Shown here: positions 51,697 to 53,256 of the stretch, one piece after another | How positions within the stretch are numbered: the first letter of the stretch is position 1 | Layout of the letters: every line of letters starts with the position of its first letter | DNA from: Dictyostelium discoideum | Lineage: Eukaryota | Length of the DNA stretch: 64,000 bases | NCBI GenBank assembly: GCA_000004695.1 | Contig: CM000151.3 | Span: forward strand, 4,032,001-4,096,000 | Direction of reading: 5' to 3' | Made by a program: the position numbers and the translations under genes | Notes under the pieces: generated by a model | Seen by the model: only the letters and a program-made list of their open reading frames with translations | Database searches by the model: none | What the model was told of the DNA's origin: nothing

Positions 51697-52608
51697 ATGA
51701 TAATCAACCAACTTTTTTAACCCCGTTGCTGTCTCAAAATTTTATTACCAAAATTGGATTTTTTTTTTTTTTTTTTTAAAATAATGGAATTTTTATTTTT
51801 ATTTTTTATTTATTAATTTTTATTTTGTGGATCTATTAATTAAGAAATTATTTTTTTATATTTCCCATTGAACATGATCAGAATTTATTTTATAATGAGG
51901 CTACTCAATATTAAAATACTTTTATACACACAAAACAATCCACAAAAAAAATAAAAAATGAAACCGAACCTTTAATTATTTAATTTATTGAAACCATGTT
52001 TAAGTCGGAAAAGGACTGAAAAACTCGGTAATTATAGAGATGGTGAGCAAACTCATCATTGATGGTGATTCAAGTCTTAATAGTCCTTTCTTTAATTTGT
52101 CAATCTCATTTCAAATTAAAGAAATTCCCTTTTGAATAGGCGGAGTAGCATGTCAAACGATCCAACACCTAATAAACACAAAGAAATACTTTTTTTAAAA
52201 CATTTTGAAATACTGGATATTAAAAAAAAAAAAAACAAAAACATTTTAAAAAACAATAAAAAAGTATCATTTAAAAAATAAAACCCAAGGAAATTCTTTT
52301 AATTGGTCTTAAAAAACTCCACGTGAATAGTAAATTATTGTTTTTTTTTATATTTATATATTTATTTATTTTTTTATTTTTTAATATATATTTTTAATTT
52401 TTATTTTTCATTTTTTTTAATGATTTAAAATGTTTATTAAATTTTGAAAAAGATAGGAAGATGGTTTTTTTCTTTTTTTTTTTCTTTTTTTTTTTTAAGA
52501 TATTATTAAATCATTTGCTAGATCTTGGTTTGGATATTTAACAATAATAGGAAACTTATGATGAATAGAAAATTGCTAATAAAAAATTTGAAAATAATTA
52601 CAATGGAC

Positions 52609-52652
52609 AGTTGACAGGGTTTTTAATCTGTGATATTTGCTGTAAGGTCAAC
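52609..52652 (-). ncRNA. Candidate dictyostelid Class I ncRNA gene of about 44 nt
   Basis: The minus strand reads GTTGAC-CTTACAGCAA-ATATCACAGATTAAAAACCCT-GTCAAC. The 5' GTTGAC and 3' GTCAAC form the terminal stem, and CCTTACAGCAA is the conserved 11-nt Class I motif lying directly 3' of the 5' stem half. A DUSE-like box CCCACAA lies on the same strand at 52712-52718, about 60 nt upstream. Confidence 0.55.
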
Positions 52653-52711
52653 TTATTATTTACATATACTTTTAATTTTAAAAAAGTGTTTATTTTGAAA
52701 TAAATTGAACT

Positions 52712-52718
52712 TTGTGGG
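52712..52718 (-). promoter_or_regulatory. DUSE-like upstream element (ATCCCACAAAG) about 60 nt 5' of the candidate Class I RNA
   Basis: The minus strand reads atCCCACAAag. As I recall it, the DUSE consensus is [AT]CCCA[CT]AA, positioned near -60 of Dictyostelium ncRNA genes. Confidence 0.45.
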
Positions 52719-52929
52719 ATAATCATAAAAAAAAAAAATAACAACATTTCAAATTACCAAAAAAAAAAAAATATAAAATTTAAATTAAAATAAAATAAAT
52801 AAATTATTTATTTTTTATTTTAATTTTTTTTGAAAATCAGAATTATTTATTTTGAAACTATTATTATTTTTCATTGTTTAAAAAAAAAAAAAATTATATA
52901 TTTAATTAAGTAAAATGAAAAATATTTAC

Positions 52930-52972
52930 AGTTGACAAAGGTTTAACTTAGAAGGTTTGCTTTAAGATCAAC
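52930..52972 (-). ncRNA. Second, degenerate Class I-like ncRNA candidate
   Basis: The minus strand reads GTTGAT-CTTAAAGCAAA-CCTTCTAAGTTAAACCTTT-GTCAAC. The stem has one G-U pair and the 11-nt motif has one mismatch (CTTAAAGCAA against CTTACAGCAA). A CCCAACC box lies about 89 nt upstream at 53058-53064. Confidence 0.35.
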
Positions 52973-53256
52973 TTTTTAACAATTAATTTTTTTCAAATTT
53001 TTTTTTGAAATTTTTTAAATAAAAAAACTTTTCATTATATTTAACAACAAATTTAAGGTTGGGATCTTAAAATAATAATGATAATAATAAATAAAGCTAT
53101 ACAATAAATTGGGGGGTGGTATAATAACTCAAAAAAATAATAATTTGCGTATATTTATTATTTTATAATAATTTAAAAAAATGAAATAAATAATAATTAT
53201 TTAATTGGGTGGTAAAAATAAAAATAAAAATAAATATATAAATATAATATTATTAT

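Follow-up and report, generated by a model that had tools for sequence, protein, structure and literature searches.

Two loci of the Class I RNA family, both real and both previously annotated in Dictyostelium discoideum, lie on the minus strand of the 64-kb stretch of DNA analysed here (the window): the expressed gene DdR-42 and a promoter-less copy, r43. The explanation that accounts best for the evidence, and in which we have high confidence, is that DdR-42 is a working Class I RNA gene and r43 a homologous silent copy that has no promoter. The window belongs to AX4 chromosome 2 (DDB0232429), and chromosome coordinates are obtained by adding 4,032,000 to the window coordinates used below, an offset that is valid at both loci when checked against the published gff. 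The initial annotation had put the two loci forward as candidate ncRNA genes in an otherwise empty intergenic stretch. The surroundings are indeed free of open reading frames of at least 60 aa from 51329 to 54444 (GC 18.7%), but the loci are not new, since r42 and r43 had come out in publications of the Söderbom group, have curated dictyBase entries and were re-evaluated with expression data in 2021 (Kjellin 2021).

Structure and family membership of the two loci

The 5' ends of the two loci, at 52652 and 52972, are exactly 320 nt apart. The features discussed in the text are as follows.

52607..52652, minus strand: DdR-42 (r42, DDB_G0295507), 45-nt mature Class I RNA with an additional terminal U (published gff, chr2 4084607-4084652(-))
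52652-52647, minus strand: 5' stem half GTTGAC of DdR-42 (from the sequence)
52610..52615, minus strand: 3' stem half GTCAAC of DdR-42, pairing with GTTGAC (from the sequence and the Rfam structure line)
52637..52647, minus strand: conserved 11-nt Class I motif CCTTACAGCAA of DdR-42, 11/11 positions, sole exact match within the 64-kb window
52712..52719, minus strand: DUSE TCCCACAA of DdR-42, ending 60 nt upstream of the +1 G (52652)
52581..52594, minus strand: T runs 3' of DdR-42, T4 at 52594-52591 and T6 at 52586-52581 (from the sequence)
52929..52972, minus strand: r43 (DDB_G0295509), 44-nt Class I-derived locus (published gff, chr2 4084929-4084972(-))
52957..52967, minus strand: degenerate 11-nt motif TCTTAAAGCAA of r43, 9/11 positions (position 1 C to T, position 6 C to A)
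52994..53000, minus strand: AAATTTG, possible relic TGTG box of r43, 6/7 positions of AAATGTG, ends 22 nt from +1
53057..53064, minus strand: TCCCAACC, possible relic DUSE of r43, 5/8 positions (TCCCA core), ends 85 nt from +1

The first of the two copies is DdR-42. It is identical to the published RNA at 45 of 45 positions (curated D. discoideum fasta) and lies at the annotated chromosome 2 position, which bears out its proposed assignment to Class I, and the comparison with the dictyBase entry DDB_G0295507 gave no differences in sequence, strand, position or the DUSE at 60 nt. Its 5' G is preceded by AA and its 3' end is CUGU (AATAATAA before GTTGAC at the start and GTCAACTGT at the end), the AA-G start and the CUGU end being defining features of Class I RNAs (Kjellin 2021). 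With 45-46 nt, a GC content of 0.38 and an intergenic location, it falls within the length (42-65 nt) and GC (32-41%) ranges of the class. The terminal stem, GUUGAC/GUCAAC, has the 6 bp claimed in the initial annotation, all of them Watson-Crick; the end given there, 52609, is the T that comes after GTCAAC, the stem itself ending at 52610. The 11-nt motif, CCUUACAGCAA in the RNA, adjoins the 5' stem half and is intact at 11/11 positions; its presence stands, but it does not immediately follow the stem half as had been described, because the first C of the motif is the last stem base and the two therefore overlap by 1 nt. The same 11-mer is present in 30 of the 37 curated DdR sequences, and a transposon origin for it is unsupported, given its single occurrence in the window and its family-typical context. 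In the curated set of D. firmibasis, DfiR-11 has its first 20 nt in common with DdR-42.

The second copy coincides with r43, as the dictyBase entry DDB_G0295509 has the same coordinates, strand and Infernal hit. Here too the 5' G is preceded by AA and the 3' end is CTGT/CUGU (GTTAAAAA before GTTGAT, and GTCAACTGT); GTCAAC ends at 52931, and the annotated end at 52929 includes CTG. The stem, GUUGAU/GUCAAC, retains 6 bp, five of them Watson-Crick and the last a U-G wobble. The 11-nt motif fails in r43, where the C at position 6 is replaced by A; T3, C6, C9, A10 and A11 are near-invariant across Dictyostelia (Kjellin 2021). A copy 320 bp away that keeps the stem with a G-U pair and carries a degenerate motif, as initially described, is what is seen in the sequence.

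Covariance models place both loci in the family. A leave-out model, for which 29 further curated Class I RNAs of D. discoideum were used and both loci excluded, scored DdR-42 at 46.8 bits (E 2e-10) and r43 at 39.7 bits (E about 2e-8), and the next best match in the window at 14.3 bits. The Rfam check suggested in the initial annotation picked out both loci, though under the gathering score: in a relaxed scan with RF01414 (Dicty_Class_I_RNA) DdR-42 reached 39.9 bits and r43 28.1 bits, the latter with E = 0.42 over the whole window, and at gathering thresholds (41.5 bits for RF01414) Rfam returned no hits in the whole window. Both loci align to the full model length (1-56), from the stem and the 11-nt motif to the CC-rich 3' segment and the CUG end; both are also shorter than the RF01414 consensus and carry a deletion of 11-12 nt in the variable loop. 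In DdR-42 an 11-nt deletion of this kind accompanies a score 1.6 bits under the gathering score, which is a curated threshold rather than a biological defining feature; because the RNA has been published as expressed, its position below the threshold is a threshold artefact. The published values are a CM score of 38.7 and a classifier score of 56.2 for DdR-42, and 31.6 and 26.6 for r43, with a classifier cut-off of 32 (Kjellin 2021).

Folding of the terminal stem depends on how much of the RNA is included. The 43-nt core of DdR-42 alone folds without the stem, which appears when the CUGU tail or the flanks are added, so the predicted fold of the initial annotation was recovered in the longer sequences and not in the core. 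Once the CUGU tail is added, both RNAs have the terminal stem in their minimum-energy fold, with pair probabilities of 0.64-0.68 for DdR-42 and 0.73-0.98 for r43. Single-sequence thermodynamic folding was not better than shuffles (z-scores -0.7 to -1.1). Across the family, 97.6% of the stem positions are paired, an observed value reached by none of 500 shuffles, and compensatory changes are found in four of the six pairs.

Promoter elements and expression

The DUSE was taken as [AT]CCCA[CT]AA preceding either +1 or a TGTG box by about 60 nt. For DdR-42 the claimed distance of 60 nt is exact, and the same measure has the same value in Table S2 of the published study, where duse_dist is 60 and the DUSE score 12.47 (Kjellin 2021); the published MEME site is 'TTTATGATTA TCCCACAA AGTTCAATTT' (Kjellin 2021). 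No TGTG box was found upstream of this gene. The DUSE consensus occurs five times in the 64-kb window, against 10.9 matches expected by chance. Among the other matches, those at 58646 and 59292 fall inside an ORF of the alpha-amylase family, and nothing RNA-like follows 60 nt after the matches at 5450 and 14451, which also lack a covariance-model hit. Downstream of DdR-42, the T4 and T6 runs are a possible Pol III-type termination signal, and T runs trail many Class I genes (Kjellin 2021).

Upstream of r43, no DUSE with up to two mismatches was found at a canonical position. Likewise, the published MEME analysis has no DUSE site at r43, and the best FIMO hit, AACCTTAA, scored 0 (Kjellin 2021). 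The weaker upstream box reported for this copy does exist and corresponds to TCCCAACC, which ends 85 nt from +1. By chance, some 0.18 copies of the [AT]CCCA core would be found per 150 nt of the window, so that TCCCAACC is weak when taken alone. TCCCA occurs only twice on the minus strand of the 3.1-kb ORF-free stretch, the other occurrence being the DUSE of DdR-42, and the AAATTTG of r43 lies 63 nt downstream of the putative relic DUSE, the canonical spacing being 57-61. Counted post hoc, the window contains two instances of the composite TCCCA...AAATKTG with this spacing, where 0.54 would be expected. For comparison, the published distances are 85/24/61 for r29 and 84/23/61 for r47 (Kjellin 2021). 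A relic promoter, a DUSE plus TGTG box at near-canonical spacing, may be preserved at r43, a reading that is post hoc and for which the published FIMO scan made no call.

Published RNA-seq separates the two loci. For DdR-42 the reads number 61/62 (0 h), 462/606 (4 h) and 570/599 (8 h), so that expression is low and the raw reads at 4-8 h are about 9-fold those at 0 h (Kjellin 2021), and r43 gave zero reads in all six libraries (0, 4 and 8 h; Kjellin 2021), a silence that refers to one study and to these time points. Rare Class I members still gave tens of reads in the same six libraries (Kjellin 2021). Read coverage validation is 1 for DdR-42 and 0 for r43 (Kjellin 2021). The same study has a DUSE at all Class I genes that are expressed, and finds loci silent that score high but have no DUSE in the right place (Kjellin 2021).

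Regarding the way in which DdR-42 may work, it is reasonable to suppose that the DUSE directs transcription from the conserved G, Pol III being the suspected polymerase because T runs come after the gene. The ends of the resulting RNA, of roughly 46 nt with a CUGU end, pair as the 6-bp stem, so that the motif CCUUACAGCAA remains single-stranded. If DdR-42 resembles DdR-21 in this respect, proteins such as Rnp1A could use the exposed motif and the stem as a platform to bind to in the cytoplasm, target RNAs might do so as well, and through such binding the Class I family could modulate early multicellular development. What is published on Class I biology includes a cytoplasmic location, the binding of DdR-21 by Rnp1A and the phenotype of a DdR-21 knockout (Kjellin 2021). 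DdR-42 itself is a low-abundance member of the family, with raw reads rising after starvation. As for r43, upstream on the same strand, it is a homologous copy that has lost its promoter, possibly leaving a relic DUSE and TGTG box behind, that carries a substitution at a near-invariant motif position and that yields no detectable RNA.

Relatives of r43 and alternative readings

The short Class I paralogs DdR-44, DdR-45 and DdR-62 (42-44 nt) belong to the same size class as the pair, are 78-82% identical to both loci and are unlinked to them, being found on chr2 at 5.97 and 8.30 Mb and on chr6. The identity of r43 is 80% to r42, 82% to DdR-62, and 80% to DdR-44 and DdR-45, the alignment with DdR-44 being ungapped with 35/44 matching positions. 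DdR-44 has a DUSE and is expressed, whereas DdR-45 and DdR-62 have essentially no reads. An analogous layout is provided by DdR-29 and DdR-45 (chr2 8,304,369 and 8,304,009, both minus), separated by 360 nt on one strand: the expressed member of that pair has a DUSE and a TGTG box, and its partner is a short locus with no proper DUSE and essentially no reads. The silent copy is downstream of the active one in that pair and upstream of it in r42/r43, and DdR-45, unlike r43, was retained among the curated loci and has an 11-nt motif and a TGTG box that are both perfect. Of the curated loci, only DdR-57 has the A of r43 at motif position 6 (CCTTTAAGCAA); like r43, it has zero reads. It differs from r43 in a stem mismatch and in its upstream elements, a DUSE-like TCCCAAAA and, at a spacing of 60 nt, a TGTG box without mismatches.

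The initial annotation considered the pair informative for how the family expands, and a recent local tandem duplication, r43 arising from r42 or the reverse, would be a direct record of that. The shared strand, the 320-nt distance and the short type of both RNAs (44-45 nt) speak for such an event, and duplication within clusters has been suggested (Kjellin 2021). Local alignments of the flanks, on the other hand, were no better than shuffles (score 26 against 26 +/- 4 for the upstream 150 nt, and 19 against 23 +/- 4 for the downstream 100 nt), and this lack of similarity means that a recent tandem duplication is not supported. Since r43 is also no nearer to r42 than to the unlinked DdR-62, DdR-44 and DdR-45, with identities that are the same or higher for the latter, we consider a recent duplication unlikely and the pair of little use for understanding family expansion; an old duplication is possible. 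That r43 resembles a Class I RNA merely by chance, in DNA so rich in AT, could be argued from its Rfam score, well under the gathering score and with a high E value over the window, and from its non-significant fold z-score. This reading is effectively refuted by the leave-out score, which stands far above the background maximum of 14.3 bits, and is further opposed by the proximity of a true member on the same strand and by the AA-G start, stem and CTGT end being in register; we regard it as practically excluded.

A different question is whether r43 could be a functional Class I variant, driven by a non-DUSE promoter or by the degenerate TCCCAACC/AAATTTG and active only under unsampled conditions such as late development, spores or stress, in which case the altered motif could mean a different binding partner. 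The locus keeps the AA-G start, the full stem, the CTGT end and a typical length and GC content; the C-to-U change in its stem preserves pairing as a U-G wobble; its leave-out score is high; the T at motif position 1 is also found in the expressed DdR-66 and DdR-67; and sampling was limited to 0, 4 and 8 h. Against this, there were no reads in six libraries in which rare members were detected, the published expressed Class I genes all have a DUSE while high scorers lacking one are silent, the near-invariant C6 of the motif is lost, and the locus was left out when the published set was curated, being missing from both the bed and the fasta files (Kjellin 2021). Such a functional variant seems very unlikely to us, and the specific version in which r43 is alive with A in place of C6, through DUSE-independent transcription in late development, spores or stress, highly improbable. 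Because r43 yields no detectable RNA, the best reading is that of a pseudogene derived from the Class I family, most likely a relic that is silent, and the initial description of a decaying paralog fits the published re-evaluation (no DUSE, classifier 26.6 under the cut-off of 32, zero reads). The RNA body of r43 is better kept than its promoter, which is at odds with uniform neutral decay. A metagenome scan for orthologs with an r43-type 21-mer gave two matches, neither of them a dictyostelid locus: one lies in a coding region, where it encodes VDLTANL and which by eye reads as a bacterial GAPDH, and the other lacks the stem and scores 13.7 bits.

Implications for the Class I family

Since both loci were known beforehand, the discovery value of these observations is small, and the points that they raise are modest and practical. 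One concerns annotation: Rfam gathering thresholds miss even the validated DdR-42, and therefore Class I annotation needs either a lineage-specific model combined with the DUSE criterion or a relaxed threshold. Another concerns regulation, as r42 and r43 have homologous RNA bodies on the same strand 320 nt apart and only the one that bears a DUSE yields RNA, so that nature itself supplies a clean example of the published rule by which a Class I gene needs a DUSE in the right place to be expressed. Were r43 alive after all, it would be the first DUSE-independent Class I RNA. What is added here to the published description of r43 is the possible relic DUSE/TGTG spacing and the finding that its flanks have no similarity to those of r42. 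The spacing hints at gene death by promoter decay, which, if confirmed, would provide a data point for the rapid gain and loss of genes in the Class I family.

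Two Class I loci on the minus strand

The initial annotation had described two Class I-like loci with a terminal stem, a conserved motif and, upstream of one, a DUSE (upstream promoter element, consensus [AT]CCCA[CT]AA) at -60. These features were confirmed in the sequence, and the description was accurate overall; only some coordinates were off by one base, and the weak box of the second locus, TCCCAACC, had been misplaced: it ends 85 nt from +1 (the conserved 5' G of the RNA). The two loci read as follows:

52652 down to 52607, minus strand: copy 1, GTTGACCTTACAGCAAATATCACAGATTAAAAACCCTGTCAACTGT
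52972-52929, minus strand: copy 2, GTTGATCTTAAAGCAAACCTTCTAAGTTAAACCTTTGTCAACTG

Copy 1 has a 6-bp terminal stem formed on the minus strand by GTTGAC (52652-52647) and GTCAAC (52615-52610). The 11-mer CCTTACAGCAA (52647-52637), which has a single exact match across the 64-kb window, overlaps the stem by 1 nt, its first C doubling as a stem base. The last base of the DUSE, TCCCACAA (52719-52712, minus strand), lies 60 nt from the +1 G, and runs of T4 and T6 are found 13-26 nt beyond the 3' end. Copy 1 is identical at 45 of 45 positions to published DdR-42, GTTGACCTTACAGCAAATATCACAGATTAAAAACCCTGTCAACTG (Kjellin et al. 2021, supplement; Genome Res 31:436, PMC7919456), and the gff of published loci from the Söderbom group (PMC7919456) places r42 (DDB_G0295507) at 4084607-4084652, minus strand, of chromosome 2 (DDB0232429).

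Copy 2 is located exactly 320 nt upstream of copy 1 on the same strand. A U-G wobble is the closing pair of its stem, its motif TCTTAAAGCAA matches at 9 of 11 positions, with A at position 6, and the sole DUSE-like string upstream, TCCCAACC (53064-53057), matches at 5 of 8 positions. The same gff lists r43 (DDB_G0295509) at 4084929-4084972, minus strand, of chromosome 2 (DDB0232429) (PMC7919456); since one offset, 4,032,000, places both entries onto the window, the window corresponds to D. discoideum AX4 chr2 4,032,001-4,096,000 and copy 2 is r43. These identities support the Class I interpretation, and both loci are already known, being published and annotated.

Family membership and published expression

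Rfam 15 includes the Class I family RF01414 (Dicty_Class_I_RNA; gathering score 41.5 bits), and a scan of the whole window at gathering thresholds gave zero matches. The Rfam search proposed in the initial annotation did recover both loci at relaxed thresholds, with full-length model alignments scoring 39.9 bits for copy 1 and 28.1 bits for copy 2. Because the expressed DdR-42 (52608-52652, minus strand) falls below the gathering score, standard Rfam annotation of the window yields no ncRNA. Our own model, R1, trained on 29 distinct curated D. discoideum Class I RNAs with both loci excluded, was run over the window with filters off and scored copy 1 at 46.8 bits (E 2e-10) and copy 2 at 39.7 bits (E 2e-8), the next-best match reaching 14.3 bits. 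Single-sequence folding of the two loci gave no significance (z-scores -0.7 to -1.1); the terminal stem, for which a fold had also been proposed, is present in the minimum-energy fold of both RNAs when the CUGU tail is included. Among 35 family members, stem positions are paired in 97.6%, and four of the six stem pairs show compensatory double changes, the observed value being reached by none of 500 shuffles.

A single metagenome scan gave two matches that were both rejected. The Class I 5' 21-mer GTTGACCTTACAGCAAACCTT on contig Ga0082212_10000291 (L001, 511-531; Class I model score 24.2 bits) is a chance match within a coding region that, read by eye, appears to be bacterial glyceraldehyde-3-phosphate dehydrogenase (GAPDH), the 21-mer encoding VDLTANL; the other match is without stem. 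The GAPDH case shows that pattern-based searches outside Dictyostelia call for care.

Table S2 of Kjellin et al. (2021, PMC7919456) applies a classifier cut-off of 32 and gives raw reads at 0, 4 and 8 h, two values each. DdR-42 has a CM score of 38.7, a classifier score of 56.2 and validation 1, with DUSE TCCCACAA at distance 60 and no TGTG box (the second promoter element, AAATGTG); its reads are 61/62, 462/606 and 570/599. It is a low-abundance member, given that abundant Class I members reach 10^5 to 10^6 reads (PMC7919456), and its raw counts increase about 9-fold, versus about 1.6-fold for DdR-21. For r43 the table gives a CM score of 31.6, a classifier score of 26.6, validation 0, AACCTTAA as best DUSE candidate (score 0), no called TGTG box, and 0/0 reads at all three times; MEME detected no motif within the 150 nt upstream of it, and the locus has no DdR name and was not included in the curated bed and fasta files (PMC7919456).

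Surroundings and other elements

The 3.1 kb around the loci (51329-54444) have 18.7% GC and no ORF of at least 60 aa. Nearby protein genes are a 501-aa GT10 fucosyltransferase-family ORF (49769-51274, plus strand) and a 1346-aa ORF resembling UDP-glucose:glycoprotein glucosyltransferase (59903-63943, minus strand). The C-rich 8-mer TACCACCC, with only four copies on both strands of the window, occurs twice on the r43 strand, upstream of that locus (53207-53214 and 53114-53121, minus; 93 nt apart), in the contexts TTTTTACCACCCAATTAAAT and TTATACCACCCCCCAATTTATT; these two copies have no DUSE-type spacing to any recognisable element.

Four other exact DUSE-consensus matches were detected. Those at 58646-58653 and 59292-59299 (both minus) fall within the coding part of an ORF of the alpha-amylase family (58259-59779, plus), and 60 nt downstream of those at 5450-5457 (plus) and 14451-14458 (minus) there is only AT-rich sequence. 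The consensus is rarer in the window than in shuffles (5 versus 10.9) and is therefore uninformative without a downstream RNA.

Four ORFs are, like actin, exactly 376 aa long (15769-16899 and 20062-21192, minus; 21689-22819 and 23916-25046, plus). Each overlaps a sub-threshold match (53-54.6 bits; gathering score 104) to Rfam mir-3533, a family that originates from an actin exon. The ORFs are probably an actin gene cluster of two divergent pairs, and the matches actin-coding artefacts. A further sub-threshold match, to the C/D-box snoRNA family Afu_264 (57901-57989, minus; 27.7 bits, gathering score 40), lies at the border of a segment with higher GC, beside an intron-looking AT-rich stretch and upstream of the alpha-amylase-family ORF.

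Origin and proposed working of the pair

A recent tandem duplication of r42 and r43 is not supported, since their flanks show no similarity beyond that of shuffled sequence, and r43 resembles the unlinked DdR-62, DdR-44 and DdR-45 (80-82% identity) to the same degree as it does r42 (80%). The pair alone does not reveal how the family expands; an analogous layout, with one locus active and one silent, is that of DdR-29 and DdR-45 on the same chromosome.

The preferred reading of r43, a homolog with no promoter and a damaged motif, is that of a silent relic. Across Dictyostelia, motif positions 3, 6, 9, 10 and 11 hardly vary, and the sole curated locus sharing A at position 6, DdR-57, likewise has zero reads (PMC7919456). 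That r43 is rather a conditionally expressed, DUSE-independent variant seems very improbable; according to Kjellin et al. (PMC7919456), a DUSE is present in every expressed Class I gene, and high-scoring loci without a correctly placed one show no expression.

The relic may retain traces of a promoter, a post hoc and only suggestive reading of its upstream sequence. TCCCAACC ends 85 nt and AAATTTG 22 nt from +1, with a separation of 63 nt, a layout like that of r29 (85/24/61) and r47 (84/23/61), which combine a distant DUSE with a TGTG box. The window holds two instances of the composite DUSE/TGTG pattern, where 0.54 are expected, and TCCCA occurs only twice on the minus strand of the ORF-free stretch, the other instance being the DdR-42 DUSE. 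The sole other composite TCCCA-N-AAATKTG at this spacing in the window is at 38864-38933 (plus), and downstream of this one the covariance model detected nothing resembling a Class I RNA.

For DdR-42, transcription from the conserved G would be driven by the DUSE at -60. Kjellin et al. (PMC7919456) point out that this element is used by Pol II and Pol III genes alike; since many Class I genes are followed by T runs, they suspect that Pol III transcribes the class. The RNA has a CUGU 3' end and base-paired ends, leaving the 11-nt motif single-stranded. Class I RNAs are cytoplasmic, Rnp1A binds directly to DdR-21, and early development is disturbed when DdR-21 is lost (Kjellin et al. 2021, PMC7919456). 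By analogy with these family-level features, DdR-42 may also be cytoplasmic, bind Rnp1A and have a role in development.
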